DNA of 64,000 bases from a virus. The first letter of the stretch is position 1. Every line of letters starts with the position of its first letter. Shown here piece after piece: positions 1 to 16,716 of the stretch. The notes under the pieces are model-generated. The model was not told the DNA's origin and ran no database searches. It was given only the letters and a program-made list of their open reading frames with translations. A program made the position numbers and the translations under genes. Location of the stretch: positions 1 to 64,000 of IMG/VR virus record IMGVR_UViG_3300030118_003002, one strand, 5' to 3'.

Positions 1-6
1 AAGAAA

Positions 7-247: not shown

Positions 248-649
248 ATGGGTTGGCAAATTATCCTCAAACAATTGGCTTGTCCTAGAGCAACTCAAGA
301 TTTGATGCTTAATACTAAAAATAGAGATGCCGCAGTTAAAAACCCTAACATTAGATATGGCCCACTTAATCTAGAAGATGAAGAATATTGGGAAGAATAT
401 GCTGAAAGATGGAATACTACTGCTGATGTAGCAAAAGAATCTAATTGTAGTAATTGTATTGCATTTGATATATCCCCAAGAATGGATGATTGTATGCCTT
501 TAACTACCGATGAAGATGGTCGCTTAGGATATTGTTGGATGCATCATTTCAAATGTCATTCTGCTAGAACTTGTTATACTTGGGCTAAAGGTGGTCCAAT
601 TGATGATGATAAAACTTCTAAAGAAAATCAAATGAGGGGTGAAAAGTAA
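248..649 (+). CDS. Cys/His-rich conserved viral protein with N-terminal WxxILK tag
   Basis: GAGGTGA SD; MGWQIILKQ start; CSNC...C...CWMHHFKCH...C. Confidence 0.8.
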   Translation: MGWQIILKQLACPRATQDLMLNTKNRDAAVKNPNIRYGPLNLEDEEYWEEYAERWNTTADVAKESNCSNCIAFDISPRMDDCMPLTTDEDGRLGYCWMHHFKCHSARTCYTWAKGGPIDDDKTSKENQMRGEK

Positions 650-1134
650 TGACTTTACAACAAAGATATGATAGTCTTGATAGACATGGCAAAAAACTCT
701 TTGATTATTTACGAGCCATGAATGGGACAAGAGTAACTGATTATAAAAAATTGACTGAAAAACAAATGTTAGATGAAGTTGATAAAAAAATGAGAGTTAG
801 AGATAATCAAGAAGAAGCAAATCGAATATTTTCAAAACCACGAATGTTAAAATGGCAAGAAGTTCTAAAGAAGAAAAAGAAACCATTCAAAGGCTACAAT
901 AAAAAGATTCATGCAAGAACGGGTGGGCTAAGTGCTAAAGGTCGTGCTAAGTTTAAGCGTGAACAAGGCTCTAATCTAAAAGCCCCTGTTACTACTAAAC
1001 CAAGTAAATTGAAGCGTGGTAGTAAAGCCGCTAAAAGACGCAAATCTTTTTGTGCAAGGTCAAGAGGATTTAAGCGTGATGATGGGACATACAGTGAAAA
1101 AGCAAAAGCCGCTAGAAGAAGGTGGAATTGTTAA
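649..1134 (+). CDS. basic viral protein; C-terminal half resembles the phage DUF6321-type domain
   Basis: GGLSAKGRA...SNLKAPV...RRKSFCARS...RRRWNC; internal KWQEVLK motif. Confidence 0.7.
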   Translation: MTLQQRYDSLDRHGKKLFDYLRAMNGTRVTDYKKLTEKQMLDEVDKKMRVRDNQEEANRIFSKPRMLKWQEVLKKKKKPFKGYNKKIHARTGGLSAKGRAKFKREQGSNLKAPVTTKPSKLKRGSKAAKRRKSFCARSRGFKRDDGTYSEKAKAARRRWNC

Positions 1135-1601
1135 TGTGGAGAGATTTGCTAAAGGCTGATTTTGTTGTTAAAACAAATTACCCCGAAGCGGATTTTTGGC
1201 TACAAAAAAGAGGTTCTGAACAGAATGTCGGAAAGCCCATGAGAAAATTTAGTGAGGTTCAAGGTAAATACAACATAGGAATTAAAATTCCTGAAGGAAT
1301 GAATAAAGAATATGTGTATGCACAATTAGCCGCTTTGTTCAGAAAAGGATATTGGAGAACACATTCTTATGGAACTTTGAATTTGCAACATATTAGAACA
1401 GATGATGTTAAGAAGATTTTAGAATCATTTGAAGATAAAGCAGACTACAAAGATACTACATCAGATAAAATAGAAAAGATATATGATAAATGGTTGAAGG
1501 ATTCTAAATTAGTTAGTCAGTTATTAATGTCAAGTAACTCTCTAATTAGAGAGGGTCGAGAAATTAAAAGGTTCTTACAGAAAATGGAGGACATGAGATG
1601 A
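1134..1601 (+). CDS. hypothetical protein with WxxLLK tag; possible HsdS target-recognition-domain-like fragment
   Basis: Start ATG overlaps previous stop (TAATG); MWRDLLKA; ADFWL..RGS...VGKP...YVY...GTLNLQHIR. Confidence 0.65.
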   Translation: MWRDLLKADFVVKTNYPEADFWLQKRGSEQNVGKPMRKFSEVQGKYNIGIKIPEGMNKEYVYAQLAALFRKGYWRTHSYGTLNLQHIRTDDVKKILESFEDKADYKDTTSDKIEKIYDKWLKDSKLVSQLLMSSNSLIREGREIKRFLQKMEDMR

Positions 1602-1747
1602 AATACAAAGACTATCAATGGTGTGGTCGTTGTTATTGTGAACGGAATGATAGACCATACGGTTTCTGCGAATCATGTTGGATAAAGCATGGTCGCCCCA
1701 AACACATGAAAGCATCTATAAGAGAGTCCAAATCTAATGAAAACTAG
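1598..1747 (+). CDS. 49-aa zinc-finger microprotein (not in ORF track)
   Basis: ATGA overlap, GGAGG SD; MKYKDYQWCGRCYC...FCESCWIKHGRP. Confidence 0.6.
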   Translation: MKYKDYQWCGRCYCERNDRPYGFCESCWIKHGRPKHMKASIRESKSNEN

Positions 1748-1758
1748 GGGTGTAATTT

Positions 1759-3408
1759 ATGGCTGATGGCAAGAGGCGATTTTCGTTTAGGCAATTATTT
1801 AGGCGTTCAACTCCCAAACCTGCTGATAGACAGATATACAACATGGGTATTCAAGAAAGACAGAATAACTACATGATGACTGCGCCTATCATTTATTCTA
1901 TGGTTCAACAATCAGTTATTGTTAGAACCTGTATTACTCAATTGAAACAGGAAGTGTATAGGAGAGGATATGTTTGGGAAAAGGCATACGATTCTATATG
2001 CAAAAGTTGTGGTAAAAAACACAACAGACCTGTAACTCAATGCTCAAGATGTGGTTCAGAAGATTTGAAGATGCCCGATGTAAAGCAATTAGAATATGCT
2101 GAAAAGTTCCTAGAAGGATATGTTAACCCATCAGAACAATTATTCATAGATGTATTGAAAGAATTAGAAGACGATTTGAATACTATGGATGATGCATATA
2201 TTGTTCTTGTTAAAGAATACTTTATTGACGGTAATGGTAAAATTAGAATGCACCGTATCAAAGAAGTATTTAGAGGCGACCCTGTAACCATGTTTATCTA
2301 TGCAGATGAAGATGGAGTAAAGGGAACAAAAGGATTTACTTGTATTAATCATAGAGATGTATTGCATACTGAACCTCATCATTCTTGTGAACAGTGCGGA
2401 GGCAATTTATATCCTGTTCATTATGTTAATAGAGCGAATGGTGACGACCAATATTTCTTAGAAGGGGAAGTATTACACTTTAGTAAATACAGTCCTAGCC
2501 GTCTTTATGGTTTCTCTCCTGTAATTACATTATACAATCATATTATGACTCTTATTGCTATGGAGAATTATGTCAATTCAGCATATACTAAGAGCAGAAT
2601 GCCAAGAGGATTGTTGGCAGTTCAAACTCGTAATTTAGATTCAATGAGAGCCTTTTGGCGTGGTGTTAAAGAGAAGATGGAGTCCGACCCTCACTTTATT
2701 CCTGTTATGGGTGTTGAATCAGATAGTGGCGGTAAAGGTGCTATTGAATGGATTAAGTTCATGGACAGTCTGAAAGAAATGGATTATATGTCTGTAAAGG
2801 ATGATTTAAGAGATAGGATTTCAGCATTCTATGGTGTCAGTAAAGTTTTCATGGCTGATAACACTACAAGCGGTGGTTTGAACAATGAAGGTATGCAGAT
2901 TCTAGTTACTAATCGTGCAGTTCAAATGGCGCAGAATGTGTATAATAATTATGTATTCCCTTACTTAGTTAAGCAATTTGGAATAACAGATTGGGTTCTA
3001 AAACTTCCTCCATCAGAAGAAGAAGATGAAATTGCTGAATTAAGGAAAAGAGAAATAGAAGTCAATATTGCGGCTTCTATTAAGAATTTAGGATTTGAAG
3101 TTGATATGGATGAAGAAGGTAACTTTACCTTTGAAAAACCAGAACCCGTTGAAGGTGAAATGGGAGAAGGCGGTAAAGAAGATAAACCGGCTGAAAAAGA
3201 CCCATATGCGGGAACAAACATTGATGCATCACAATTAGGACAAATGCAAGAACAGGCATTAGCGGCAGGTTCTAAACCACAGGAAAATCCCCCAGCCACA
3301 AGGAATAAAGCCTCAATGAATGTAGGGCCAGATAAGCGAATGTCAGGATTACCAGCAGAAGCAGGTAATCAAAATGTGGATAAAAGAACAGAAAGGAGAG
3401 TTGGTTGA
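1759..3408 (+). CDS. portal protein with Zn-ribbon insertions
   Basis: Portal-like motifs (EVLHF..SP..LYGFSP, ISAFYGV...NNEG), 549 aa, first large gene of head module. Confidence 0.9.
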   Translation: MADGKRRFSFRQLFRRSTPKPADRQIYNMGIQERQNNYMMTAPIIYSMVQQSVIVRTCITQLKQEVYRRGYVWEKAYDSICKSCGKKHNRPVTQCSRCGSEDLKMPDVKQLEYAEKFLEGYVNPSEQLFIDVLKELEDDLNTMDDAYIVLVKEYFIDGNGKIRMHRIKEVFRGDPVTMFIYADEDGVKGTKGFTCINHRDVLHTEPHHSCEQCGGNLYPVHYVNRANGDDQYFLEGEVLHFSKYSPSRLYGFSPVITLYNHIMTLIAMENYVNSAYTKSRMPRGLLAVQTRNLDSMRAFWRGVKEKMESDPHFIPVMGVESDSGGKGAIEWIKFMDSLKEMDYMSVKDDLRDRISAFYGVSKVFMADNTTSGGLNNEGMQILVTNRAVQMAQNVYNNYVFPYLVKQFGITDWVLKLPPSEEEDEIAELRKREIEVNIAASIKNLGFEVDMDEEGNFTFEKPEPVEGEMGEGGKEDKPAEKDPYAGTNIDASQLGQMQEQALAAGSKPQENPPATRNKASMNVGPDKRMSGLPAEAGNQNVDKRTERRVG

Positions 3409-3409
3409 T

Positions 3410-3739
3410 ATGACTTGGGAAAATATATTGAGAATTGAAAAGTTTAGAAATCCTTTTAAATCACAAAAAAAGGGAAGAGAAAAAATGCCTATCGAACTTT
3501 TTCAACGAAGGCATAGATTAAGTCCCGAAGTTATGAAAGAAGTTAGACAAAAAATACGACCATTAACCAATTTATACAAACAAAAAGTTCCTGAATTTGA
3601 GGCTAATGAAGAAAGCACACTTTGGATAATTTCTAAACATTTGACGGGCAAACAATCAAGAAATCCTGATGCTGATACTATTAATACCATAGATGAAATT
3701 ATTAGGAATTTAACAGATATGATAAATAGAAAAAGGTGA
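3410..3739 (+). CDS. hypothetical protein with WxxILR tag
   Basis: ATG 3410 right after portal stop; MTWENILRIEK. Confidence 0.7.
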   Translation: MTWENILRIEKFRNPFKSQKKGREKMPIELFQRRHRLSPEVMKEVRQKIRPLTNLYKQKVPEFEANEESTLWIISKHLTGKQSRNPDADTINTIDEIIRNLTDMINRKR

Positions 3740-3743
3740 TTAA

Positions 3744-3971: not shown

Positions 3972-3980
3972 TGTGATAAT

Positions 3981-6900
3981 ATGTCATGGAAAGCGGTTTT
4001 GGCAGGGCGTGAAAACGACCCATCCTTTTTACTCAAATCATTAGTTGAGGATATAGAAAAGGCTATGGAAAGACAACCAAGACCTAGCCCATACCCTGCC
4101 GGTATGGGAGAAGGAAAGAATATAGAGGGAGGTATTAATGACATTAATGATTTCGCTAATAGAGCATTGTATCTTTACTTCAAAGGAAGACCTAAAGCAA
4201 AAGACGGATATGGCAGACCTAAAGACAAACCTAAGTTATCCCCCGAAGACAGCAGAAAGTTGAGAATACAAGTAAAAGAAGGTATCAAAAAAGATATTGA
4301 GAATTATTACGAAGAACTGAAAAAGAAAGTTAGTTCTGAAAAAATAGATTGGAAAGAACTGAAAGAAGAATGGTTAATTGATAATTTTTATTTCAGTGTT
4401 CCTAAAGGTGAAAAAAGAACAATTAATAGGAAATTTTTTGATGATAAAACTGCTGAACTCCCAAAGAAATTAAAACCTGAAAATTTAGACCCTTTATCCC
4501 AACCTATTAGGCAAAATATCATTAGAGTGTTAATTGTAGGAGATAGAGAACTACAACCCGAATACAAAAAAGCAAAAGAAGTTTTAGCAGAAAGAAAAAA
4601 AGAGTTAAAACAATGGGAAGATAGAGAAAAGGGAATCCGAGATTCTGACCTTGAAGATTATAAAAATACGCTAAGTAGGAAAAAATCAAATGTTATGTTG
4701 GCTACACAAGATGTTAAATGGTTAGAAGGCCAAATTGCAGAAGTTAAAAGTAAGCAATTTTCTAAAAAGCAATTATTTGCACAGTATGGTGGAGAGGCTA
4801 AATTCAAAAAAATAATTAAAGATTCTAAAAAAGCATTTATTGATAAAATGAAAGAACAAGAAATCAAAGTAATTGATGATGCTATCGAAAAAATACAAAA
4901 TGAAGTTGTAAGGTGGGTAACATCTTCCGAAAGAGATAACATTACCTTTATGGAAATTTATTCTGACCTTGAAGGAAAATCAGAATTGAAACAATTAAAG
5001 AAATTACTTCAAGATGAAGAAATGAAATCATTCTTTAATTCTCTTGAGAAGGTTAGATACGAACTCCCTAAAAAATGGAAGAAAATGACACCGAAGGAAA
5101 AGAATGATTGGAAACTTCAAAACAAAAGAAAATTCCAAGACAGTTATCAAAGAATACTCAAGAACTTAAAGGCTCTTAAAAATAAGTATTCTAAAATGGA
5201 AAGTAACACAACGATTAAAAGAAAGATTGATAACATAACTTCTGTCATTAATACTCTTGTTAAAAGATTCGATATGAAAAATTGGTCTAAAAGCGATAGA
5301 GAAGCAGAAGAAACAAAAAGAGAAAGAGGAACTTCTTTCAGAAGAACTAGCGATAGATTAACTGATGCACAAAGAAAAGAAAGTGAAAAATTTGAATTAA
5401 CTGCATTATACGAAGTCTTATTTAGTGACCCTGAATTGCTAGATAAAGGCAACATTAAAAGCAAATTTAAATCTTTTCTCTCTAGCGGTGATGTTGATGT
5501 GAGCGCACCAACTAAAAAATTATGGAAAGATTTCACTAGTAAATTAGAAGTATTTACTAAATCCCAAAATCCAGAAAAAGATTTTGTTAAGTTTATTGCT
5601 TCCAATGAATTATATCTTATTGATGTGGTTAATCTTCTTCAAACTAAAAGAAATAAAACGAAGATACCTGCAAAGAAATTAGTTCTTCAAAAACCTAAAA
5701 AAGAGAAAAAAGAAGAGATTGCAAGATTACCTCCAAGTAAGCGTAGGAAAGAAAAAGACCCTTTCAAAAAATCATATGTTCCTAGAGAACATGGAAGGAT
5801 GGGAGAATTAGCCTCACTTGGACAAGGCACAGGTTATGTTCCTAGAGCGCATGGCGCAAAACAAGAAGTCACCATAGCAGGGAAAAAAGAATCAAAGCCA
5901 ATTGGTAGCAATACAAAGGCTATGGAAGAAAGAATGAAGAAGTTAGGCAGACAATATAAACAAAAGATGCGAACTGATTTCAAAAAATTAAAAGAAAAAA
6001 TGAATACAATCAACACAGATGAATTTGATAAATATTTTAGTGAAGCAAAATCTGTCATGGATGCTGATTTATTTGCTTGGATTGACAAAACCAATAAAGG
6101 TATAGGATTACGGCCTTTTGCTTATGATAGTGAAGATAAAGGTTTTTCTGAGATTGAAGAATCTTCTAAAAAAATAATGAAGTTATTGAATAGCAAAATG
6201 CAATATGAAGGGGAAGAAATTAAAGTATTGAATTTAATCAATAAATTGGCAAGAAAGGTTTACAAAAAACAAGCAGGTGCGATTGTGTCTGCAAAAAGAA
6301 AGAGGATTTCTGAAGGATTGAAAGAAATTAAAGAATCAACAATTAGAAATATACAAAATCAAAAGAAAGTCGATTTCGAAATTCCTAGATTATTAAAATT
6401 AAAATTCAAGCAAGAAGGAATAAAACTTAAAAAATATTTCTATAATATTTTTGAAGCAACAGATACAAAAGATGGATTTGAGATAGATTTGCCTGAATTT
6501 AATTCCGGTAAAGCAAATAATTTTATTCGAATATCAGAAAATCTTAGTAACGAATTAACTGAAATTGAAAAGAAGTTATTTGATAAATGGAAAGAAATAT
6601 CTGAAAAACTAACGGAAGAATCAAAAGAAGAAGATGAAGCGAAAGAAAAAAGAACTGTTGGTCAAAGAGTTGGAGCATTATATATCGCAACGAGAGAATT
6701 AAACAAAATAGAAGATAATATCTATGAATATGATGAATTAATAGATAAAACTATGAGGCAAATCGGAATATTAGAAGTTGAAATTGAGGCTTTTATAGAA
6801 TTGTTTGAAAAAGCACAGAAGAAAGGGTTTATATCAGTAGCAACTAAAAGAACTTTACCCGACAAAGAACAGAAAGCATTAGCAGCCAAATATAATGAAA

Positions 6901-7049
6901 AAATACAAGATGCTAAAAGAAGCATGAAAAGAAAACTCAAGTTAATTCCTAACTTTAAAAAAGCAATTAAAAAATTAGATAAGTTAGGCGAAGGATGGAA
7001 AAAATCTCTTGAAAATATTAAAGAATCAACTAGGGGGAAAGAAGAATGA
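3981..7049 (+). CDS. large Lys/Glu-rich helical protein (1022 aa), possible internal head protein
   Basis: Long ORF; N-terminus MSWKAVL...FLLKS...IEKA; no catalytic motif recognised. Confidence 0.75.
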   Translation: MSWKAVLAGRENDPSFLLKSLVEDIEKAMERQPRPSPYPAGMGEGKNIEGGINDINDFANRALYLYFKGRPKAKDGYGRPKDKPKLSPEDSRKLRIQVKEGIKKDIENYYEELKKKVSSEKIDWKELKEEWLIDNFYFSVPKGEKRTINRKFFDDKTAELPKKLKPENLDPLSQPIRQNIIRVLIVGDRELQPEYKKAKEVLAERKKELKQWEDREKGIRDSDLEDYKNTLSRKKSNVMLATQDVKWLEGQIAEVKSKQFSKKQLFAQYGGEAKFKKIIKDSKKAFIDKMKEQEIKVIDDAIEKIQNEVVRWVTSSERDNITFMEIYSDLEGKSELKQLKKLLQDEEMKSFFNSLEKVRYELPKKWKKMTPKEKNDWKLQNKRKFQDSYQRILKNLKALKNKYSKMESNTTIKRKIDNITSVINTLVKRFDMKNWSKSDREAEETKRERGTSFRRTSDRLTDAQRKESEKFELTALYEVLFSDPELLDKGNIKSKFKSFLSSGDVDVSAPTKKLWKDFTSKLEVFTKSQNPEKDFVKFIASNELYLIDVVNLLQTKRNKTKIPAKKLVLQKPKKEKKEEIARLPPSKRRKEKDPFKKSYVPREHGRMGELASLGQGTGYVPRAHGAKQEVTIAGKKESKPIGSNTKAMEERMKKLGRQYKQKMRTDFKKLKEKMNTINTDEFDKYFSEAKSVMDADLFAWIDKTNKGIGLRPFAYDSEDKGFSEIEESSKKIMKLLNSKMQYEGEEIKVLNLINKLARKVYKKQAGAIVSAKRKRISEGLKEIKESTIRNIQNQKKVDFEIPRLLKLKFKQEGIKLKKYFYNIFEATDTKDGFEIDLPEFNSGKANNFIRISENLSNELTEIEKKLFDKWKEISEKLTEESKEEDEAKEKRTVGQRVGALYIATRELNKIEDNIYEYDELIDKTMRQIGILEVEIEAFIELFEKAQKKGFISVATKRTLPDKEQKALAAKYNEKIQDAKRSMKRKLKLIPNFKKAIKKLDKLGEGWKKSLENIKESTRGKEE

Positions 7050-7411
7050 CATGGGATTATTATGATGAACAGGAAGAATATATTCTAAAGGAGAAAAAAT
7101 CTCCGGAAAAAACTATTCTTAATAGTTTAGATAGCAAGCAAACTAAGAAACTAAAAAAGACTTTACAAGCGGCAGAACCTACTGAATTTTTTGGACAGGA
7201 CTTCACTAAAATGGGTGAACTGATAGATGTTCTAAAAGAATTAGATTTTATGAAGTCGGACAAAAAACTCAACAAGCGCATGAAAAGCATGGATGAGCGT
7301 AACCTTGATATTGTAGCCACTGCTACCAAACTCCGTAAGGATTACGAAACCTTGTATCGTCAATTGCGAGAAATGATTTATCCAAAGAAAAAAGGTGGAA
7401 AAAATGAGTGA
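7046..7411 (+). CDS. hypothetical head-module protein
   Basis: ATGA overlap, helical 121 aa. Confidence 0.75.
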   Translation: MTWDYYDEQEEYILKEKKSPEKTILNSLDSKQTKKLKKTLQAAEPTEFFGQDFTKMGELIDVLKELDFMKSDKKLNKRMKSMDERNLDIVATATKLRKDYETLYRQLREMIYPKKKGGKNE

Positions 7412-7643
7412 ATTAAATGAAGATGTATTGGCGATTTTGAAAGCCTTAACTGATAAAATAGAACAACTAGAACAGACCGTATATCATAAGGACAACCTTT
7501 TGATGAAATCCGGTCTTGTAGTTACAACAAGTCCAAGCCCTAAAATGAATAATACCATTGGTAGTGCTTCTGCTATTGGTGATGTTTCAAGCATGGATTG
7601 GTCAGATATTCATAAAATGATGGAAAAGGTAGGTGGACAATAA
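7404..7643 (+). CDS. small coiled-coil protein sharing the scaffold C-terminal motif (mini-scaffold/adaptor)
   Basis: Ends SSMDWSDIHKMMEKV versus protease/scaffold ASMEWSDIHKMVNNI. Confidence 0.75.
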   Translation: MSELNEDVLAILKALTDKIEQLEQTVYHKDNLLMKSGLVVTTSPSPKMNNTIGSASAIGDVSSMDWSDIHKMMEKVGGQ

Positions 7644-8113
7644 TGCCGGAAAGAGTAACTAAAGAAGAAAGAATTGTTAGTCTTGCAATTGAAAAAGCAA
7701 GAAGGGCAAAGGAATTATTGCAACAAGAAAGTGTTCACGAAAGGCTTCCTCTTGATGATGAAATAGAAGTTGAGAAAATTAAAAGACCTAAAGTAACTAA
7801 TGTAAAGCCTAAGAATCAAACCCAAAAGAAAGAAGGGTATGGTCTTGCTGGCGAAACTACTGAACATAAAATCAAAAAGGCTGAATCAAATTTACCGGAT
7901 GAAGTAAAAAAAGCGTTAGATAAAGTGGCCGAAGAAATAAGAAAGGCTTTTGACGATGTTGACCTTAAATCTTTATTACCGCTTGTAGCACCTCAAGGAA
8001 GGGCAAGGCAAAGGTATTTTGATAAAGAAGAAATGATTGAGACATTGGTTAAAAAAGCGATTGATGCACTAAAAAAACAAAAGAGAACAAGCCGTTTTGA
8101 TGGGAAATTGTGA
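7643..8113 (+). CDS. hypothetical head-module protein
   Basis: TAATG coupling; 156 aa. Confidence 0.7.
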   Translation: MPERVTKEERIVSLAIEKARRAKELLQQESVHERLPLDDEIEVEKIKRPKVTNVKPKNQTQKKEGYGLAGETTEHKIKKAESNLPDEVKKALDKVAEEIRKAFDDVDLKSLLPLVAPQGRARQRYFDKEEMIETLVKKAIDALKKQKRTSRFDGKL

Positions 8114-8119
8114 TGACCT

Positions 8120-11059
8120 ATGCCTAAATCCGGCCTTCTATTTGAGAAGAAGGGTAACGCTTCTAATCAAATACTTCAATTGTTTGAAAGAGTTAGGGTT
8201 GCCTATCTTTCTGCAAGAACCGACCCGAAAGAGTATGGTTCAAAATGGAGAAGTGCTATTGAATACATCAAAGAAGAATATGATGATTCGGGGAAGTTTG
8301 GAGAAGAATTGAAACGCTACATTGATGATAAGGATTTGAATAATGAAGATGCTTCCGATGTAACTACTACTATTGCTGAAAAGATATACGAAGCAGTAAA
8401 AAAACTTCGATATGCTTCTGATGAAGTTTCTGACCCTTTTGCTAAACACTTCAAAGATAATGTTCTTGAAGCGTTATTAGAATCACCGGAAACAATGGTT
8501 AAATTCTTGCATTATGCTATGAGAAATGACAATAAAGCACTTAATCCATCCATTTACAGCGTTAAAGACATGAAACCTGACACCATTACGGATGGTCTTA
8601 TGGGACTTGACCTAGAAGTGGATGATATTCCCCTCTATATTATTGAGCATTATGGGGATGGAAAAGACTCAAAGAAGGTGGAAAAGAAAGTTAAGTCTGC
8701 TATGGCTATGTTAGAACTATTATTCTTTTCTAAACACAATGAAGAAGATTGGGAAGAGTTAGAAGATATTGACATGGAAACTGATACACCTAAAAAAATG
8801 ATTGAAAAATCAGAAACAGAAAAGGGTAAGACAGATTTCATTACTCCTAACAAACCTATGTATAGAATATTTGACATTGAAGACATGGAAGAGTTAAAAG
8901 GATTTAGCGGTGAATATATTGTTCAAGAAAAATATGACGGTATGAGAATACAGGTTCATAAAATAGACAACAAGATTAAAGTTTATTCCTATAATGAAAA
9001 AGATATTACTGATAAATGTAAAGAAATTGTTGAAGAAATGAAGAAGAAACACTTTGGGGATTGTATTCTAGATGGTGAATTAATATTATTTGATGGAAAG
9101 GATGCACTACATAGAGCAGACACTATTGCTCATGTGTTTAAGGGTAAATATCCCGATGCTAAACTAAAAGCACATATGTTCGACATTATGCGACACAATG
9201 ATAAAAATATTGCAGATGAACCTTTGAGTGATAGATTGAACACAATGTTCAATAATTATTCTGTTCATTCGAGTGAATATCTAAACTTCCCTTCTAAGAA
9301 AGATACTCGATTAGCGGATTCGATTAAAGAAGTTGAACAGTATTCAAAAGAAATAATGGATATGCCTACTGCCGAAGGTGTAGTCATTAAAGATTCAACT
9401 TCCACATATTACATAGGGACTAAGAAAAATCCTAAATGGATTAAATGGAAGAAATTTGTTGATTTAGATTTAATTGTATTAGATAAAAAGAAAACTAAAT
9501 CTAAACTTTATTCATATACATTAGGGGCTGGACCGGCTGATGAAGGACAAGAAATTAATGGTCTTAAATATATGAATGTAGGAAAAGCATTGAATACTAA
9601 AATATCTGTTGATATTGGAGATATTGTTCGTGTAAAAGTTGATGAGGTAAAAAAGAAAGGAGATGCTTATTCGATTTATTCTGCTAAAGTAATAGAAGTT
9701 CCGGAAGTGGAATATCCTGATAAATTGGTCACACTTGAGTTGTTATCTAAAGATACAAAGAAATCTTTGAATTACGATGTAAAAGCATTAGAAAAGGGAG
9801 TAAGTGTTACTGATTATATTCACGGTGAAACTAATGTTATTATTAAAGGTGACATGGATGGGTTTACTATTTACGGGTTTGATGAAAGTAACTTAATGTC
9901 TAAAAATGCTTTAGCGAATTTAGATGAATGGAAAAGTCAAGCAGAAGCGATAATGAAAACAAAACAGTCTAGATTAACTGTTGCGGCTTTTCAACATCTA
10001 AAAGAAAGAGGTGCAAAAACCCCTAAAGAGTTACATGATTTCTTAGTTAAAAATCATTCTAAAATATATGAAGATATTTTAGAAAGTAAAATGAATAGAC
10101 TTTCTAATTGGATGGATGAAAGAGATGGTATTTCTTTTGATAAGAAAGAAAAGAAATTAATTGCAGACCCCGATAAGATTATGCAAGATGAAGAAGAAAT
10201 TAAAAAATCCTTTTTACTCAAAAATCAAAGACTTCTCCAAGAAGCAAAAGAATTAGAAGAAGAAGTTACTATTAGTGCTGATGCTGATATGGAAGGAGAC
10301 TGTTGTTCTAAACTTAAATCAGACTATTTATCTATACTTAAAGAAAGTTTAGATACATTAGTAAAAGAGTATGGTGGTTATAAAAAATATGTTAAAGCAC
10401 GAAGCAATCCTTCAAACACATATGATTATGCCCCGACATTAGAAGAAGAACATGAAGAAATGGAAACAACTGTTTTAGACTTGTCTTGTGAAGAATTAGT
10501 CAAGGAATTGACTGAATTCTTTGAAGAAGAAGGCTATGAAGACATAGGACAACTTCTCGATGAATATAAAAATTGTCAGTTCGGAGAAGGATTCTCAGAT
10601 AAATATGCTATGTTAAAAGCATATAAGACTCCAAAAAAACTTCAAGAGGGTAATTTCAAATTATATCTAAGGGATGATGAAAACTTAAACTTAGTAATTA
10701 AGTTAGAAGATGAAACACTTAATTGGTTAATAGACTTAGAAAAAGACGATGATATATTCAGATTGTTTGGAAAGGCGAATAAATACCCTGCCCAAATAGC
10801 AACTAACATTTCCAAGAAGAAAATTATAGATTCTGGAGAAATAGGACTCGGTGTTCAGAAAGAAGGCTATCACGAATATTTCTTGAGAGGTAATAAGTTT
10901 GAAACTAAACTGCACTTTAGAGTAATAGAAGTGGATGGAAAGGAAATGTGGTTGGCTTGGACAGGGTATAAACAGAAGCCAGCAGATAAAGACACTGATG
11001 CTGGATTATGGAATATTTACGAAGATAAGTATAAAAAATTGCCACTTCCACCTAAATGA
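8120..11059 (+). CDS. lig: multidomain ATP-dependent DNA ligase in the head module
   Basis: Motif I QEKYDGMR, III ILDGEL, IIIa MFDIM, IV EGVVIK, V WIKWK, OB domain; extra N- and C-terminal domains. Confidence 0.9.
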   Translation: MPKSGLLFEKKGNASNQILQLFERVRVAYLSARTDPKEYGSKWRSAIEYIKEEYDDSGKFGEELKRYIDDKDLNNEDASDVTTTIAEKIYEAVKKLRYASDEVSDPFAKHFKDNVLEALLESPETMVKFLHYAMRNDNKALNPSIYSVKDMKPDTITDGLMGLDLEVDDIPLYIIEHYGDGKDSKKVEKKVKSAMAMLELLFFSKHNEEDWEELEDIDMETDTPKKMIEKSETEKGKTDFITPNKPMYRIFDIEDMEELKGFSGEYIVQEKYDGMRIQVHKIDNKIKVYSYNEKDITDKCKEIVEEMKKKHFGDCILDGELILFDGKDALHRADTIAHVFKGKYPDAKLKAHMFDIMRHNDKNIADEPLSDRLNTMFNNYSVHSSEYLNFPSKKDTRLADSIKEVEQYSKEIMDMPTAEGVVIKDSTSTYYIGTKKNPKWIKWKKFVDLDLIVLDKKKTKSKLYSYTLGAGPADEGQEINGLKYMNVGKALNTKISVDIGDIVRVKVDEVKKKGDAYSIYSAKVIEVPEVEYPDKLVTLELLSKDTKKSLNYDVKALEKGVSVTDYIHGETNVIIKGDMDGFTIYGFDESNLMSKNALANLDEWKSQAEAIMKTKQSRLTVAAFQHLKERGAKTPKELHDFLVKNHSKIYEDILESKMNRLSNWMDERDGISFDKKEKKLIADPDKIMQDEEEIKKSFLLKNQRLLQEAKELEEEVTISADADMEGDCCSKLKSDYLSILKESLDTLVKEYGGYKKYVKARSNPSNTYDYAPTLEEEHEEMETTVLDLSCEELVKELTEFFEEEGYEDIGQLLDEYKNCQFGEGFSDKYAMLKAYKTPKKLQEGNFKLYLRDDENLNLVIKLEDETLNWLIDLEKDDDIFRLFGKANKYPAQIATNISKKKIIDSGEIGLGVQKEGYHEYFLRGNKFETKLHFRVIEVDGKEMWLAWTGYKQKPADKDTDAGLWNIYEDKYKKLPLPPK

Positions 11060-11079: not shown

Positions 11080-11105
11080 AAAGAAATTACAAGGGGTTGA
11101 AGAAC

Positions 11106-12344
11106 ATGAGCATTAGTGTCATGGCAACAAGGAATGATGATTTCAGAATTCTAAAAAGCGATGATTTAATGATTGGAGGATATGCAAGTATTGAAATCGT
11201 GGATAAACAAAACGATTTAATTACATTAAATGCATTAAAAACCGCAGTTACAAAATTCATGGAAGATAAAAAATTCAGAAATGTAATGACAAATCATTCA
11301 AATGTTCAAGTTGGAGAAGTTGTGGACTCTTATAGAGATAAAACCGGAAAACTATGGAAATCGGAAGTTGATGATGTAGGATTCTTTGTAGTAATTAAAT
11401 TAAGAGATGACATAGAAAAAGCCAAAGAGGTTGGGAGAGGTATTCGCAAAGGCACATTAAGGTCTTTTAGCATAGGTGGACAGGCATTACAAAAAGTAAA
11501 GAAAAGCCACGGTGAATTAGGGGAGTATAACGAGATAAGCAAATTAGAACTCCATGAAGTAACAATATGTGAAAAAGGCATTAATCCCGAAGCGAAGTTT
11601 GATATTCTGAAACAAGATATTGGAGATGAAAAAATGAGTGATAAACTAGAAAAAGCACTAAATGAATTAGATACTCTTCTAAAAGAAGTTGAGAGTCTAA
11701 AGGGAGATGATGAGGAGTCTATGGATTCCAATTCTGAAATGATGGAAGAAAATGCTGAATACATGGAAATGGCTGATGATGGCGATATGGAGAGAGGCGA
11801 TTACATGAAAGGCGATGATGAAGATGATGAGAAAGAAGGAACACACCCTTCTTACAAGGATGATGCAGAAAAAGCATACCTAAGAACACTTGATGGAGCA
11901 GGTAATCAAATTGGTGAACCAGCAGATAGAATCGTCATTAACAACGGAAAGCCAACTGCTTCCGATATGCCGGTTGTAAAAGCATTTGAAAACAATGAAT
12001 TTGATACACTAAACCTATCAAATGCAAACATTGAGAAGGCTTACGAAGCATTCCGTCAAGAAAAACTTGAGGAACTAGCATACGATAACCTTCGCAAGTC
12101 TTTTGAAACTCGCTTTAGCAGTGAAGTTTCAAACCGTGAGAACATTCTCGCAAAGTCACAATATGACGCACAGGCTGAAATTGCTTCCATTAAAGAAGAA
12201 TTTAGCGAACTAAGAAAGTCTCTTACTGCTGAAAAGGAAACTATCCTAAAAGCACAAGAAGAGTCAGTAATTAAAATGCCATCAATTGATGATATTGCAT
12301 CAATGGAATGGAGCGATATTCACAAAATGGTGAACAATATTTGA
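11106..12344 (+). CDS. HK97-type prohead protease fused to C-terminal scaffold
   Basis: IGGYAS..IVDKQND, H in MTNHSN, RSFSIGG, LHEVTIC..GINPEA; acidic coiled-coil tail; directly upstream of MCP. Confidence 0.9.
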   Translation: MSISVMATRNDDFRILKSDDLMIGGYASIEIVDKQNDLITLNALKTAVTKFMEDKKFRNVMTNHSNVQVGEVVDSYRDKTGKLWKSEVDDVGFFVVIKLRDDIEKAKEVGRGIRKGTLRSFSIGGQALQKVKKSHGELGEYNEISKLELHEVTICEKGINPEAKFDILKQDIGDEKMSDKLEKALNELDTLLKEVESLKGDDEESMDSNSEMMEENAEYMEMADDGDMERGDYMKGDDEDDEKEGTHPSYKDDAEKAYLRTLDGAGNQIGEPADRIVINNGKPTASDMPVVKAFENNEFDTLNLSNANIEKAYEAFRQEKLEELAYDNLRKSFETRFSSEVSNRENILAKSQYDAQAEIASIKEEFSELRKSLTAEKETILKAQEESVIKMPSIDDIASMEWSDIHKMVNNI

Positions 12345-12354
12345 GGTGATTAAG

Positions 12355-13689
12355 ATGACAGGATATATTAACACAATAGCAGATTTAGAAGCACAAACAT
12401 ACGGAATGAATCTTCCAGCCGGAAATGCCTTGCTAAAGCAAGCAGGTATGGTTGGTGGAATACACACAGGACATGACGGTTCTCCGTCATTTAGCGGTTC
12501 AGCCGTTTCTGATGTGTCAGCACTATACAATGTCGTTTATGGACAAAAAGTTTGGTCTATGCTAAACCGTGAAGTAAACGCACTTTCAATGATTTCAAAG
12601 AGACCATACACTTCAAGCGGTTGGAGAGTATTAAAGAGCAGACCTGCTGGTGGTAGCGGTAATCTATTTACTGTTGATAAAGCAAATGTTTCCCTAACAT
12701 TGGGAGAATTGGGTTCAGACACACCAAGAGCAGATTCTATTGGTGGTGTTCCAGAAAATGCTGGACTTTCAACTGCACAAGATGGATTAGGGCCAATTGC
12801 GCCAACATACGCTCAATTGAACATGAGTCCTAAAGTCGTTGCACATCAATTTGATTTCAGCGAATTGGCTATGGAAATGGCACAGATTGATGATGGAATT
12901 GGCGATATTAGAGCGCAAATGCGTGAAGATATGGGTAAGCACCATGCTGAAGTGCAGAACAAAATGCTTGTAATGCCACTAGAGTTTTATGGTGAATCAG
13001 CACTATTGCCAAATATTGCTAACAATTACACTTCGCTATTGAAGGTTATTACTTCAAAGGCTGAATTAGACCTATTGGATGCACAATCTTCTCTAATGAC
13101 AGATGGTGCTACTGCAACAAATGTAAGCCACATTTACGGAACTAACCGTGATAGTGCTTCTTTCCTTGATGCAGAAGTGGATGCAGGTTCAACTTATGCG
13201 GCAACAGGAGTTAGAGCATTAACTCTAACTTTGCTAAATAACATGGTTCGAAATCTAAGACTTGCTGGTGGTTCACCAAAGGTTATTCTAACCGGATATG
13301 ATACCATTCAAGCACTTGCAGACCTATTGCAGAGTCAAGAAAGATTTATGGATAGAAAGGAAATTGTTCCAACAGTGAACGGTGTTCGTGGAACAAAGGG
13401 TCAAGAAGTAGGATTTAGAGTAGCAACATACTACGATATTCCGCTAATTCCTGTAAAGGACATGACAACTACCGGACTAGCATCATCTAAACTATCAGAC
13501 CTACTATTCCTTGATACAGACCATCTATGGCTATCAGTTATGAAGCCAACTCAATACTTTGAAGATGGTATCGCTAATGGAAACCCATTCGGTGTAGGAA
13601 CATTAGGTAACAGGGCTTTGTATAGAACAATCGGTGAAGTCGGTTGTTCTTTCTTCAAGGGTCAAGGAAAAATTACTAACATACAGTGA
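12355..13689 (+). CDS. major capsid protein (HK97 fold)
   Basis: Position after protease; about 445 aa; YGQKVWSMLN, GGSPKVILTG, YYDIPLIP, QGKITNI features typical of archaeal caudoviral MCPs. Confidence 0.9.
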   Translation: MTGYINTIADLEAQTYGMNLPAGNALLKQAGMVGGIHTGHDGSPSFSGSAVSDVSALYNVVYGQKVWSMLNREVNALSMISKRPYTSSGWRVLKSRPAGGSGNLFTVDKANVSLTLGELGSDTPRADSIGGVPENAGLSTAQDGLGPIAPTYAQLNMSPKVVAHQFDFSELAMEMAQIDDGIGDIRAQMREDMGKHHAEVQNKMLVMPLEFYGESALLPNIANNYTSLLKVITSKAELDLLDAQSSLMTDGATATNVSHIYGTNRDSASFLDAEVDAGSTYAATGVRALTLTLLNNMVRNLRLAGGSPKVILTGYDTIQALADLLQSQERFMDRKEIVPTVNGVRGTKGQEVGFRVATYYDIPLIPVKDMTTTGLASSKLSDLLFLDTDHLWLSVMKPTQYFEDGIANGNPFGVGTLGNRALYRTIGEVGCSFFKGQGKITNIQ

Positions 13690-13709
13690 GGAAATAAGGA
13701 GAGGATAAT

Positions 13710-13973: not shown

Positions 13974-13983
13974 GGTGTTTTAA

Positions 13984-14343: not shown

Positions 14344-14353
14344 GGTGAATTAA

Positions 14354-14701
14354 TTGGTTAAACTTAAATTAACCCCTAATTCAACAATAGGATTACTACA
14401 AGTTACACCAAACGATACTATCACAAGAGAAAAAGAAATAGAAGTTAGCGTTGCCTTTGCGATTAATCGCATTGGCGACCCTAACTATCTATTCACTTTT
14501 GAAGAATGTGACCGTTTGGATTTAGAAAAAGCCGATGAAAAATTATTGGCTAGTGCTTGTTCGGGATTAGGTAAAGACGAATTAACGGCAGAAATGCTGG
14601 TAAAAACTCTATTACCGCCTAAAGTAGTCCCTAAGAAAAAGACTACTACCAAAAAGACTACTGCTAGTAAATCTTCTAGCAAATCAAGTCTTACGGAATA
14701 A
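14354..14701 (+). CDS. hypothetical protein with Lys/Thr/Ser-rich tail
   Basis: GAGGTGA SD + TTG start. Confidence 0.65.
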   Translation: MVKLKLTPNSTIGLLQVTPNDTITREKEIEVSVAFAINRIGDPNYLFTFEECDRLDLEKADEKLLASACSGLGKDELTAEMLVKTLLPPKVVPKKKTTTKKTTASKSSSKSSLTE

Positions 14702-14705
14702 TAAC

Positions 14706-14724
14706 AACCGGCATATTAAATAGT
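14706..14724 (+). promoter_or_regulatory. putative promoter (AACCG-N4-ATTAAATA)
   Basis: Intergenic; same spacing as the 11059 element. Confidence 0.45.
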
Positions 14725-14753
14725 CAGCGTTAGCCTCGCTGTATTTAGAAGGG

Positions 14754-15062
14754 GTGATGAACATGGGTTATTCATGCAGGTCAAGCGGTGTTTTAGGTGC
14801 TAGCAAATTAATTGTTACAGGAAGAACAAAACTAGTTAGCGTTCACGCTGCTCTTTTTGTTACGGGCGGAGACGCAGTAACCATTAATGTATTCGATGGA
14901 ACTGATAATACAGGAACTAAAATAGCCATGATTTCAAGTGCAACCAACGGTTATCATAATTTAGAATATGATATGCATGGTGTTCTGTGCAATACAGGAT
15001 TATTCCTAGAAGTAGCAGAAGCCGGTTCATCCACCGTTAATGTTTCTATTGAATTTAACTGA
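14754..15062 (+). CDS. small beta-sandwich virion protein (putative)
   Basis: Alternating hydrophobic beta pattern; start could be 14757 or 14763. Confidence 0.6.
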   Translation: MMNMGYSCRSSGVLGASKLIVTGRTKLVSVHAALFVTGGDAVTINVFDGTDNTGTKIAMISSATNGYHNLEYDMHGVLCNTGLFLEVAEAGSSTVNVSIEFN

Positions 15063-15071
15063 GGTGGTCGG

Positions 15072-15461
15072 ATGGCGGCACTAAATCAAGATACTAGACT
15101 AATTATGACTATACTATTCGTTGGCACTGTTAGCGGTGCTAATGTATATTTTTATGCTAACTACGGAGTCAATTTCCCATACACTACATTAGCCCATGCG
15201 ACACTGTTTGGTCTAATTACTGTTGGTGGAATTATGTGCCTAAAGGCTATCTTTGATTTATCACTTAATGATAAGATAGAATTGAGATTGTTAGATAGAA
15301 GAATTAATGCTTATTGGGAGCGCAGGGCGAGAGATGAGCAACAAAGACAAAAACTTACAGAAACTATGAAGCAATACAATACTACTGTTATTGCACCAAG
15401 CACCACAATGTATGAAACCGAAAACACAATTTCAAATGACTTTTTGGCTAAACTACAATGA
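15072..15461 (+). CDS. membrane protein, 2 TM helices plus cytoplasmic coiled coil
   Basis: LIMTILFVGTVSGANVYFY and ATLFGLITVGGIMCL segments. Confidence 0.75.
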   Translation: MAALNQDTRLIMTILFVGTVSGANVYFYANYGVNFPYTTLAHATLFGLITVGGIMCLKAIFDLSLNDKIELRLLDRRINAYWERRARDEQQRQKLTETMKQYNTTVIAPSTTMYETENTISNDFLAKLQ

Positions 15462-15470
15462 GGTGGTTGA

Positions 15471-15686
15471 ATGTTTAATGACATAATGGGTTTTACAGAA
15501 ACCGACTATGTTTATAATCAAAGCAGAGCGCATTCTGCTGATATGTTTTTTATGAAGATGAGAATGTGGTTTTGGGTCACTTGCGCCTCTTTGTCATTTT
15601 TCTTCTTAGGAAACATAATGGGAGTTTTTGACATAAATGTTGTTGGTTGGCTATTAGACAACCTTTGGCATTCTTGGGAGGTTTAA
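15471..15686 (+). CDS. small membrane protein
   Basis: MWFWVTCASLSFFFLGNIMGVF hydrophobic segment; GAGGTGG SD. Confidence 0.7.
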   Translation: MFNDIMGFTETDYVYNQSRAHSADMFFMKMRMWFWVTCASLSFFFLGNIMGVFDINVVGWLLDNLWHSWEV

Positions 15687-15688
15687 TC

Positions 15689-16351
15689 TTGTCAGTGATG
15701 ACAGGTTTCGCTATTCTTGTTGGAGAAGCGATGATAGGTTTTTGGAAAAAAATACATGCAATTAATTTTGGAGTTTATGGCGCAACAATGGTAGGTAAAA
15801 CAACATTAAGCCATCAATTGAGAACAAGAGGAGAAGTGCAGCAAATTAATGAAAGGACTGTTGGATTACATAGACCAACAAGAAAAACAATTAAGATAGA
15901 TGGAGATATGCACACAATAAGAAGTTCTGATATAGGAGGAGAAGCGATATATTGGAAAGAATGGGCTAAAGACATGAGAATGAGAAAACCCAAATACATT
16001 ATTTTTATGATAGACCATAGACATTTAGATAGCGGAGTTAATTTAGACCATCAAGTAGCGTGGAAGTTTTTGGTTGATGTTATTATTAATCATAGATGGC
16101 CGAATGGTAAAAAGAAAAAAGAAAAGGACTATCCTTTAGCAGTAGGAATATGGGCTAATAAATATGATATATGGGGAGAAAAACATAAATCAGAAAAGTC
16201 TATTGAAAAACATGAAATTTTTGAACCTTTCAAATACGGAATGAGGCAACTAAATGATAAAGGAATACCGACATTCAAATACATAGTATCAGCAAAATCA
16301 GACCCCGAAATGGTGTATAAAGGAATCACTACAATGATAAAGGACTATTGA
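15689..16351 (+). CDS. Ras-superfamily (Arf/Sar-like) small GTPase
   Basis: G1 GATMVGKTT, G2 RTVG, G3 DIGGE, G4 NKYD, G5 SAK; hydrophobic N-terminal helix; GGAGGT SD before TTG 15689. Confidence 0.85.
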   Translation: MSVMTGFAILVGEAMIGFWKKIHAINFGVYGATMVGKTTLSHQLRTRGEVQQINERTVGLHRPTRKTIKIDGDMHTIRSSDIGGEAIYWKEWAKDMRMRKPKYIIFMIDHRHLDSGVNLDHQVAWKFLVDVIINHRWPNGKKKKEKDYPLAVGIWANKYDIWGEKHKSEKSIEKHEIFEPFKYGMRQLNDKGIPTFKYIVSAKSDPEMVYKGITTMIKDY

Positions 16352-16356
16352 TGATT

Positions 16357-16716
16357 ATGTGGAAGATGATTCTAAAAACAAACCATCTAGATAGTATTAA
16401 GGAAACTGCCGAACAATATTTTTTGAAGTTAAATAGTGGGGAGAAAGTAAAGATTTTTTTGACCAAACATTTTAGTGACAATTTACAATCAAGATTCCCC
16501 GATATTAAAATAAAAAGAATCAAAAACGCTATCGAAAGAAAACTTAATCGAGGACAACTACCGGAAAAAACTACAATCATTGTAAAATTAGTTAGGCAGA
16601 AAAAGAAAGACGCATATTTAGTAATTAAAAGATATAGCAGAAATATTCATGTAAAGACAATTAGACATATGCGAGAAGACCAAAAGAAACGATTTTCAAT
16701 AATAGAAGAAAACTGA
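16357..16716 (+). CDS. basic hypothetical protein with WxxILK tag
   Basis: MWKMILKT; C-terminal VKT motif. Confidence 0.65.
   Translation: MWKMILKTNHLDSIKETAEQYFLKLNSGEKVKIFLTKHFSDNLQSRFPDIKIKRIKNAIERKLNRGQLPEKTTIIVKLVRQKKKDAYLVIKRYSRNIHVKTIRHMREDQKKRFSIIEEN

Follow-up and report, generated by a model that had tools for sequence, protein, structure and literature searches.

The window analysed here (64,000 nucleotides) corresponds to bases 1-64000 of a 96,234-bp magrovirus genome which harbours a split PolB, a chaperonin and two DNA ligases and whose first 99 bases recur as its last 99 bases. The assignment to an archaeal virus, proposed in the first-pass annotation, is thereby borne out. 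Among the archaeal viruses of the surface ocean, magroviruses belong to the most abundant; to our knowledge, Marine Group II archaea cannot be grown, and we know of no magrovirus isolate. Within the window, genes of the head module are accompanied by genes whose products begin with a common eight-residue peptide of the consensus M-x-W-x-x-[IV]-[LI]-K, hereafter referred to as the tag (Table 1). Judged by the major capsid protein (MCP), the nearest cultured relative is Haloarcula virus HVTV-1 (25% identity), whose head genes follow the same order. Since no comparable tag was seen in HVTV-1 when we looked for one, the virion proteomics of HVTV-1 is not transferable to the magrovirus.

Table 1. 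Tagged genes and head-module genes of the window (positions refer to the window unless indicated otherwise)
Feature	Position	Strand	Remarks
Tagged protein, C-terminal part	1..219	+	start MSWKDILKTEKAHCG at genome position 95962; 41 of 43 homologues in related loci tag-initiated
Tagged protein, 133 aa, Cys-rich	248..649	+	tag MGWQIILK 248-271; without Pfam family
Fusion protein	649..1134	+	67-aa N-terminal module, internal tag KWQEVLK (850-870), DUF6321 (residues 89-157)
Tagged protein, 155 aa	1134..1601	+	tag MWRDLLK 1134-1154; DUF6943 from residue 12, past the tag
Portal protein, head-module context gene	1759..3408	+	PF04860
Tagged protein, 109 aa	3410..3739	+	tag MTWENILR 3410-3433, Arg for Lys; homologues MTWQEILK, MTWENILK
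Large post-portal protein, 1022 aa	3981..7049	+	degraded tag MSWKAVL...FLLK 3981-4037
Conserved head-module protein, 121 aa	7046..7411	+	degraded tag MTWDYYDEQEEYILK 7046-7090
Small coiled-coil-like protein, 79 aa	7404..7643	+	ends MDWSDIHKMMEKVGGQ (7593-7640), including MDWSDIHKM, which copies the scaffold tail
156-aa protein	7643..8113	+	second most enriched in [ILVM]-x-K-[ASQ]: 6 observed, 0.9 expected
S78 prohead protease fused to scaffold region	11106..12344	+	13 [ILVM]-x-K-[ASQ] sites; tail MEWSDIHKMVNNI 12303-12341
Major capsid protein, HK97-like, SU10_MCP	12355..13689	+	conserved N-A-L-L-K-Q-A-G, residues 24-31; LLK = 12430-12438
Tagged protein, 119 aa	16357..16716	+	tag MWKMILK 16357-16377; amid head-completion and tail genes

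The motif M(x)W-x-x-[IV]-L-[KR] is found at the start of four genes of the window (248, 1134, 3410 and 16357), the copy at 3410 ending Arg-Ile. In addition, two degraded copies (3981 and 7046) and one internal copy (853) are present, while the ORF at 1-219 constitutes the end of a tagged gene. All peptides quoted in the first-pass annotation (248, 1134, 3410, 16357, 3981 and, internally, 850-870) are located where it had placed them. In the protein encoded at 248-649, M1, W3, I6 and K8 are invariant in 23 aligned homologues; its AlphaFold2 model (mean pLDDT 44) is too poor to place the tag. The fusion protein encoded at 649-1134 carries its internal KWQEVLK 18 residues before DUF6321, in line with the earlier notion of a portable tag of about eight residues that can precede a separate domain, and homologues of this protein elsewhere are tag-initiated. 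A homologue search with the DUF6943 protein yielded close magrovirus relatives only. The length of the large protein encoded at 3981-7049 is very variable among genomes, its positional counterparts in other clades starting with S-[FY]-M-D-I-L-[RK]. Counterparts of the adjacent protein (7046-7411) in other clades bear the canonical tag (MTWQEILKAS, MSWQSILKTN), and in one clade the large upstream protein carries this domain as a C-terminal fusion. The small protein encoded at 7404-7643, to which the first-pass annotation had not referred, is kept in all clades seen, and the one following it (7643-8113) is a candidate for a second core or scaffold protein.

Occurrence of the tag and nature of its carriers

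About one seventh of the genes of the 96-kb genome (~15%) have the tag at their start. A genome-wide count of the strict motif at residues 2-4 of called genes gave 15 cases, compared to 0.07 predicted by its internal frequency (Poisson P 1e-30), which confirms an excess over chance; a six-frame scan raises the number of N-terminal tags to about 21. All of these lie on the head-gene strand; copies of the strict motif are exclusively + strand copies (15 versus 0, Fisher P 3e-5), and none of the 64 - strand genes of the genome possesses an N-terminal tag, as had been noted for the - strand genes at the outset. The same holds for three further complete genomes, whose portals are 63-70% identical. 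Each of the four genomes contains 15-21 tags versus 0.03-0.07 expected; pooled, 49 tags reside on the + strand, which is the head-gene strand, and 1 on the - strand, the replication-module strand being nearly free of the tag (1 of 233 genes).

The interval from 248 to 16716, to which the system had initially been assigned, does contain copies, but understates the extent of the system, whose main arrays are found beyond the window (80.1-86.6 kb and 95.1-96.2 kb of the genome). The larger of these (80.1-86.6 kb) forms the beginning of the + strand block; the TerL gene follows 9-15 kb downstream, and the portal gene, with which the head module begins, about 10-16 kb downstream. This distance makes early expression of the array possible. 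The supposed confinement of the tag to the virion module holds with respect to the head-gene strand and block, although the largest array lies at a distance from the head genes. The opening of the + strand block is a placement also typical of early host-takeover genes.

The Trp of the tag is invariant and position +2 is acidic, while the residue following the Lys is A, S or Q in only about 31% of tags. Mostly the tag is N-terminal; less often it occupies a domain junction or the C-terminus. In the third of the clades, the more distant of which we reached by a search for related loci, it assumes the form F-[DE]-x-A-W-x-[LVI]-[VM]-K. No published description of the tag was found in the literature.

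The proteins bearing the tag are highly diverse. From related contigs we collected 369 distinct tagged proteins which form 119 families without BLAST similarity to one another (83 seen once), at loci whose portals are 63-99% identical; carrier genes are polymorphic between related genomes. Within the window, the tagged bodies show no mutual BLAST similarity (all E > 0.4), and the few Pfam matches of tagged proteins represent unrelated folds (PAP2, pentapeptide repeat, SUKH_6, DUF6943, DUF5754). The early observation of one motif on unrelated proteins extends well beyond the window, and a single paralogous family was ruled out as similarity does not extend beyond the tag. In 20 of 60 cases, the segment behind an internal tag is homologous to a protein that elsewhere stands alone with its own tag, the alignment beginning directly past the tag, and several ORFs are multiply tagged with one copy per domain junction (three in L055:2278-3663). 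Tagged proteins have a median length of 107 aa and a median pI of 9.3. A membrane-like segment is present in none of 325 tagged proteins compared to 5-9% of untagged ones, which, together with only three hydrophobic residues among charged ones in the tag itself, led us to discard a signal peptide or membrane anchor.

Protease-scaffold sites and scaffold tails

In the first-pass annotation, hydrophobic-x-K-[A/S/Q] sites had been described as dense in the protease and scaffold. Indeed, the protease-scaffold of the window contains 13 [ILVM]-x-K-[ASQ] sites versus 1.6 in composition-preserving shuffles, none of 2000 of which reaches 13. Ten protease-scaffolds from three clades contain 6-13 such sites each compared to 1.2-2.0 in shuffles (6-8x), the concentration being specific to the protease-scaffold; for nine of them the observed count is reached by 0 of 2000 shuffles, and for the tenth (L090, 6 sites) by about 1%. 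In each of four genomes the protease-scaffold is the top-ranked protein for this pattern, which is not enriched if Lys is replaced by Glu or Arg. Helix packing in the scaffold could be a partial cause of the pattern. The I-L-K end of the tag matches P3-P1 of the candidate site, P1' being A, S or Q only in the minority of tags given above. Two stretches of the protease, FxILKS (around residue 17) and FDILKQ (around residue 170), were considered as cut sites and rejected: they are probably strands of the protease fold, as distant homologues retain the hydrophobic pattern without the Lys. The LLK pointed out near the N-terminus of the MCP is present and conserved; the conservation, however, extends over this entire N-terminus, so that LLK is not conspicuous as a site. 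In the AlphaFold2 model of the MCP (pLDDT 52, too poor for placing LLK) this stretch is modelled without secondary structure.

The proposed resemblance between the scaffold end and the tag is found in the lineage of the window, where the tag profile places the two tails among the best-scoring 1.5% of Trp-centred windows. It is weaker in two other clades (top 6-10%) and absent in the third clade. Scaffold tails vary at +4 and +5, while the tag remains W-x-x-I-L-K in clades with differing tails. In a test for covariation of tag and tail, positions -1 and +2 shift jointly from the main clades to the third clade, for which the profile comparison gives no resemblance.

Proposed capsid targeting, its alternatives and known systems

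Taken together, our analysis suggests, as the best of the explanations considered, that the tag may be a capsid-targeting propeptide, similar to the capsid-targeting sequence (CTS) of phage T4, which directs accessory proteins that are small, soluble and mostly basic into the head; we put the probability of this reading at slightly below one half (roughly 0.48). Binding, cleavage and delivery of the tagged proteins are steps which we infer as follows. An amphipathic turn exposing W, I and L on one face would bind to the procapsid core, that is, either to the scaffold-protease or to the capsid protein on its inner face. Subsequently, the S78 prohead protease would cut past the Lys of hydrophobic-x-Lys, as it presumably does repeatedly in its own scaffold region, and the freed proteins would stay inside the head until they pass into the next cell together with the DNA. 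Capsid targeting is supported by canonical or degraded tags on two conserved genes of the head module (3981 and 7046) and on the counterparts of these genes, and further by the N-terminal excess, the portability of the tag, the selection on the peptide, the soluble and basic nature of its carriers, the site motif concentrated in the protease-scaffold and the tail resemblance in this lineage. Against it stand the constancy of the tag beside differing scaffold tails, the dissimilar tail of the third clade, the small share of tags with A, S or Q after the Lys, the Arg-Ile end at 3410, the remote largest array and the number of cargo species, twenty-odd being many for a capsid holding 96 kb of DNA.

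Among the alternatives, the one that fares best, albeit unlikely, is that the tag is a short linear motif addressing a hub other than the capsid, such as a host complex, the viral chaperonin or a degradation machine limiting protein lifetime, and that the tagged genes serve early host takeover. The location of the largest array at the head of the + strand block, far from TerL and portal, would suit this explanation, as would the small size and hypervariability of the tagged genes, nearly all of which lack an assigned function, the use of N-terminal, internal and C-terminal positions alike, as is typical of binding motifs, and the dissimilarity of the third-clade tag to the scaffold tail. It is at odds, though, with the nearly tag-free replication-module strand, with the tags on conserved head-module genes and with an I-L-K end coinciding with P3-P1 of the protease-scaffold motif; moreover, the hub itself is hypothetical. 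Quite improbable appears a mere processing signal, i.e. a propeptide or polyprotein-like linker which the viral protease removes for activation or separation without any capsid addressing. Both the multi-tag ORFs with their copies at domain junctions and the site enrichment in the protease-scaffold could be accommodated in this way. Yet in HK97-type assembly the activity of the S78 prohead protease is normally confined to the procapsid interior, so that its substrates must be there anyway, and the invariant Trp and the acidic +2 residue lie outside the scaffold site motif, which indicates a second function. Conservation at the nucleic-acid level, as a translation-start or recombination element, or descent of one fast-diverging family is largely excluded: the tight, translationally coupled arrays of tagged genes, the AGT codon used for 90% of the Ser residues at -1, which fits ATGA start/stop overlaps, and a conceivable benefit of common gene starts for cassette exchange would agree with it, but the Ile, Leu and Lys codons of the tag follow background synonymous usage with all six Leu codons present, which points to selection on the peptide and led us to reject a DNA-level explanation, and internal and C-terminal tags, unrelated Pfam folds and 119 unrelated families contradict it as well.

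Returning to capsid targeting, a more specific version is conceivable which we regard as tentative, the odds being somewhat against it. Here, the tag would be a two-part code whose [M]-S-W-x-D-I half, taken from the scaffold tail, docks in the procapsid and whose I-L-K half is the prohead-protease site. Any gene gaining the 24 bases would then encode a packaged and injected effector; in this way more than 100 unrelated, fast-turnover cargo families would have come about, which would plausibly act in counter-defence.

The internal proteins of T4 are diverse defence proteins with the CTS as their sole common part (PMC3012670). As in IPI-IPIII, Alt and the polymorphic internal-protein genes of T-even phages (PMC3012670), the N-terminal ~8-10 residues are all that diverse, fast-changing, small and often basic magrovirus proteins have in common; in both cases the peptide ends hydrophobic-x-charged, in the magrovirus in possible agreement with the prohead protease consensus, and the same type of site, putative in the magrovirus, is repeated in the scaffold. 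In contrast to T4, the magrovirus, whose host is an archaeon, has a tag without sequence similarity to the CTS, a candidate cut after Lys instead of Glu and, in place of gp21, an HK97-type protease (Pfam S78: Peptidase_S78, S78_2) fused to the scaffold. While T4 has a handful of such genes, the magrovirus has about 21 per genome and at least 119 families, and its tag, a putative packaging signal, also occurs internally and C-terminally. By these comparisons the magrovirus system would be an analogue of the T4 CTS and not a member by descent.

Phage scaffolding proteins and the HK97 protease possess C-terminal capsid-binding tails. Like these, the tag would form a short amphipathic terminal helix; in this lineage the scaffold-protease and the small protein encoded at 7404-7643 both end M-[DE]-W-S-D-I-H-K-M, of which M, the polar residue, W, x, D and I are common to the tag. 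The tail motif [ML][SDE]W-x-[DE][IV][HN]-x-[LM], however, is older and far more widespread than the tag, lacks the L-K end and drifts between clades while the tag stays constant. The giant phages SPN3US and phiKZ offer another parallel, as their prohead protease acts on many head-internal proteins at a short consensus motif (PMC10052503). The propeptides of these proteins, proposed to serve targeting, contain several motif copies (PMC10052503). Unlike the tag, these propeptides comprise 20-254 residues without a common portable element and are cut after Glu. Encapsulins, in turn, use a short terminal peptide to dock unrelated cargo inside an HK97-fold shell. Their peptides are usually C-terminal, follow another consensus and are uncleaved, whereas shell binding of the magrovirus tag is putative.

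Should the capsid reading be wrong, a conserved peptide on so many unrelated proteins would still indicate an undescribed hub interaction in archaeal virus infection. The two-part code, if true, would have no forerunner among archaeal viruses and would exceed the T4 system by far in size. If capsid targeting applies, an archaeal virus with an HK97-type protease would have evolved the T4 solution of a portable targeting peptide combined with a protease site on its own, and an eight-residue handle would be available for loading foreign proteins into HK97-fold capsids. As a loading signal, the tag would localize the products of roughly 15% of the genes in an abundant, uncultured group of viruses, and this location would be the first functional clue to them; the tagged proteins would then be candidates for effectors that are injected into Marine Group II archaea and act on them.

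Genome layout

The record comprises 96,234 bp, of which the window covers bases 1-64000. Its last 99 bases (96136-96234) are a copy of bases 1-99 with one mismatch. The repetition reflects either terminally repeated DNA or circularity of the assembly and, because the contig ends repeat, the ORF at 1-219 is a truncated view, namely the 3' part, of a gene whose start, encoding MSWKDILK, lies at genome position 95962. The gene arrangement (see table) agrees with published descriptions of magroviruses of Marine Group II archaea, including, in groups A and B, a ligase within the structural module (PMC5434244), which bears out the earlier assignment to an archaeal virus. Judged by the capsid protein, the haloarchaeal viruses HVTV-1 and HCTV-1 come closest among cultured viruses, at about 25% identity. 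For magrovirus group B1 split polymerases have been described. The ligase-domain protein of the head module is found at this place in every clade seen, with a length of 854-1155 aa, and harbours neither the N-terminal tag nor the C-terminal scaffold tail considered below.

Features of the record with their coordinates
Feature	Position	Strand	Remarks
Portal	1759-3408	+	tailed-virus morphogenesis module
979-aa protein with ATP-dependent DNA ligase domain (residues 259-444)	8120-11059	+	second ligase; in head module between portal and protease
S78 prohead protease fused to scaffold region	11106-12344	+	morphogenesis module
HK97-type major capsid protein	12355-13689	+	morphogenesis module
Tail tube protein	21711-23360	+	morphogenesis module
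Replication module	38.7-64 kb and beyond	-	split family-B DNA polymerase, chaperonin, PD-(D/E)XK nuclease, canonical ATP-dependent ligase
Family-B DNA polymerase, two ORFs	46144-47814 and 44369-45250	-	small ORFs at 45247-46016 in between
Tagged family (I)-[NK]-W-[RW]-x-I-L-K-A-K-S-K-R-Q-Q-D-L-T	genome 95350-95620 (outside window)		related loci, e.g. L048:8323-8670, L021:7940-8224

Occurrence and portability of the tag

The peptides which the first-pass annotation had quoted as a shared tag on unrelated proteins were all located where it had placed them. Among the real genes of the window, a six-frame scan with the pattern W-x-x-[ILVM]-[ILM]-[KR] yields four copies right behind a start codon (248, 1134, 3410 and 16357), each with a Shine-Dalgarno-like sequence upstream, and one internal copy at 853; two further internal matches, one in the major capsid protein and one in a minus strand gene, are unrelated. 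Most tags lie beyond the window in an array of 13-14 consecutive small genes (genome 80.1-86.6 kb), and four additional tagged genes at 95.1-96.2 kb are continuous with the window's first genes. The whole genome contains about 21 N-terminal tags among about 135 genes, gene counts being approximate as they derive from longest-ORF calls. When only strict matches on called genes are counted, 0.07 would be expected and 15 are present (P about 1e-30), every one on the plus strand (Fisher P 3e-5). The same bias recurs in three further complete genomes (portal identity 63-70%), which contain 9-16 tags each. The proposed enrichment at N-termini and restriction to one strand are thus confirmed.

The consensus reads M, [S/N/T], W, [K/Q/E/F], [D/E/N], I, L, K, and behind it comes a stretch rich in Lys, Ala or Pro. 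The Ile, Leu and Lys codons of the tag show synonymous usage at background frequencies, Leu being encoded by all six codons, and therefore it is the peptide which is conserved and not the DNA. The single codon bias concerns Ser at position -1 (AGT in 90%), which, together with the occurrence of Asn, Thr and Lys at this position, fits frequent ATGA start/stop overlap in tightly coupled genes. In the tagged family listed in the table ATG, GTG and TTG are all absent ahead of the tag. Since the codon at the second position ahead of the Trp is conserved as Ile and a GGTGG-like sequence is present upstream, ATT or ATA is suggested as the start codon of this family.

From 160 related loci, four genomes and the present genome 369 distinct tagged proteins were collected which, once the first ten residues are removed, fall into 119 families unrelated by BLAST, 83 of them seen only once; the tag is portable, as had been supposed. 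Pfam matches are found in only about seven families and concern unrelated folds (PAP2, pentapeptide repeat, SUKH_6, DUF6943, DUF5754), and a PHROGs search of the tagged families adds nothing to them. In the window DUF6943 begins behind a tag, and 18 residues separate the internal tag at 853 from DUF6321. As 20 of 60 internal tags precede a segment whose homologues occur as tagged proteins in their own right, and the alignments begin right behind the tag, internal tags represent junctions of a tagged module fused behind another protein; some ORFs contain three junctions, each with a tag. C-terminal copies of the motif occur in a conserved protein of ~370 aa and in the 176-aa protein just upstream of terminase. 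Directly ahead of the gene for the terminase large subunit (genome 91524-92054, corresponding to L177:12524-13051), the encoded protein has a conserved domain of ~180 aa ending in D-D-P-x-P-x-W-F-x-L-x-K. This motif is the end of the protein in some genomes, while elsewhere the protein extends into one to three variable segments (e.g. L055:2278-3663), an extra tag ahead of every one of them, in a polyprotein-like layout.

Tagged proteins have a median length of 107 aa and a median pI of 9.3, the pI exceeding 9 in 57%. This profile of size, charge and solubility fits soluble proteins travelling with DNA, comparable to the internal proteins of phage T4. A membrane-like hydrophobic segment is present in 0 of 325 tagged proteins compared to 5-9% of untagged plus strand ORFs, which disfavours a secretion or membrane signal.

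Scaffold tail and candidate protease site

Both the protease-scaffold and a 79-aa protein (7404-7643) terminate in M-[DE]-W-S-D-I-H-K-M, which is kept in all close relatives. Library-wide, tails of the form [ML]-[SDE]-W-x-[DE]-[IV]-[HN]-x-[LM] are common in S78 protease-scaffold fusions well beyond the present lineage. The resemblance between tag and scaffold tail claimed earlier is real in this lineage, where, among 1931 Trp-centred windows ranked with the tag profile, both tails of the window come within the top 1.5%; tails of two other W-x-x-I-L-K clades reach the top 6-10%. It is absent, however, from a third clade of more distant magroviruses (L179-L258), whose tail is unremarkable under this profile. 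The distinct tag of this clade, M-[ST]-x-F-[DE]-x-A-W-x-[LVI]-[VM]-K, differs in spacing, occurs at N-termini and internal junctions (e.g. L211:14613-14828, L205:4172-4684), often followed directly by a Cys-rich (CPxC) domain, and does not resemble the clade's own tail [LI]-[DE]-[GS]-W-R-A-x-E-x-L-A-R-R. Between clades, the evolution of the tag does not parallel that of the tail. Given their resemblance in the present lineage, the tail may be the source of the first half of the tag. The 79-aa protein is small and coiled-coil-like and copies the C-terminal tail of the scaffold; this protein and that encoded at 7643-8113 may serve either as additional scaffold or core components or as adaptors for the large head-module proteins.

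The asserted density of hydrophobic-x-Lys sites in the protease-scaffold was corroborated: it contains 13 [ILVM]-x-K-[ASQ] sites compared to 1.6 in composition-preserving shuffles, 13 being reached in 0 of 2000. Nine other protease-scaffold proteins from three clades contain 6-13 sites compared to 1.2-2.0 in shuffles, and the observed count is reached by 0 of 2000 shuffles in eight of them and by about 1% in the remaining one (L090, 6 sites). Replacing Lys by Glu or Arg in the pattern reveals no enrichment in these proteins, although Glu is more abundant. In all four genomes ranked for the motif the protease-scaffold comes out on top, followed in the present genome by the 156-aa protein at 7643-8113 (6 sites, 0.9 expected). 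Since the Lys motif is concentrated in the protease-scaffold, just as scaffold or propeptide regions of T4 and giant phages hold multiple protease sites (PMC10052503), the specificity of the protease is probably [ILVM]-x-K with a small or polar residue behind the Lys. Two of the motifs in the protease, around residues 17 and 170, probably form strands of its fold. I-L-K of the tag matches P3-P1, and Ala is about four-fold enriched at the next position; A, S or Q follows the tag Lys in only about 31% of tags. The LLK near the N-terminus of the major capsid protein is indeed conserved in all clades (residues 24-31, N-x-L-L-K-[QSA]-[AS]-G), but it is not distinctive as the whole N-terminus is conserved.

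Possible role of the tag

The best-supported reading, to which we assign a probability of about 0.48, is that of a putative analogue of the T4 capsid-targeting sequence: the short peptide would direct a variety of small proteins into the head during assembly, after which the head protease would remove it. In favour of it are the portability of the tag and its restriction to the head-gene strand, its presence on the conserved head-module genes at 3981 and 7046 and their counterparts, the solubility and basic charge of the tagged proteins, and, at the level of sequence motifs, the Lys-specific motif of the protease-scaffold and the tail resemblance. Against it stand the uncoupling of tag and tail between clades, the imperfect fit at P1' and the location of the biggest array, which opens the plus strand block, possibly an early-gene place too. 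That the tag is instead a binding motif for some different hub appears rather unlikely, and a pure processing signal is less probable still. DNA-level or paralogy explanations are highly improbable in view of the background codon usage and the 119 unrelated families, respectively.

The tag is not mentioned in the magrovirus literature searched; the tests applied to it here were codon usage, a shuffle-controlled site-motif test and the cross-clade comparison of tag and tail. In contrast to the T4 capsid-targeting sequence, it is of unrelated sequence, is associated with an S78 protease and has a much larger putative cargo set. If the reading as a capsid-targeting sequence, somewhat short of even odds, is correct, an archaeal virus would possess a targeting peptide like that of T4.
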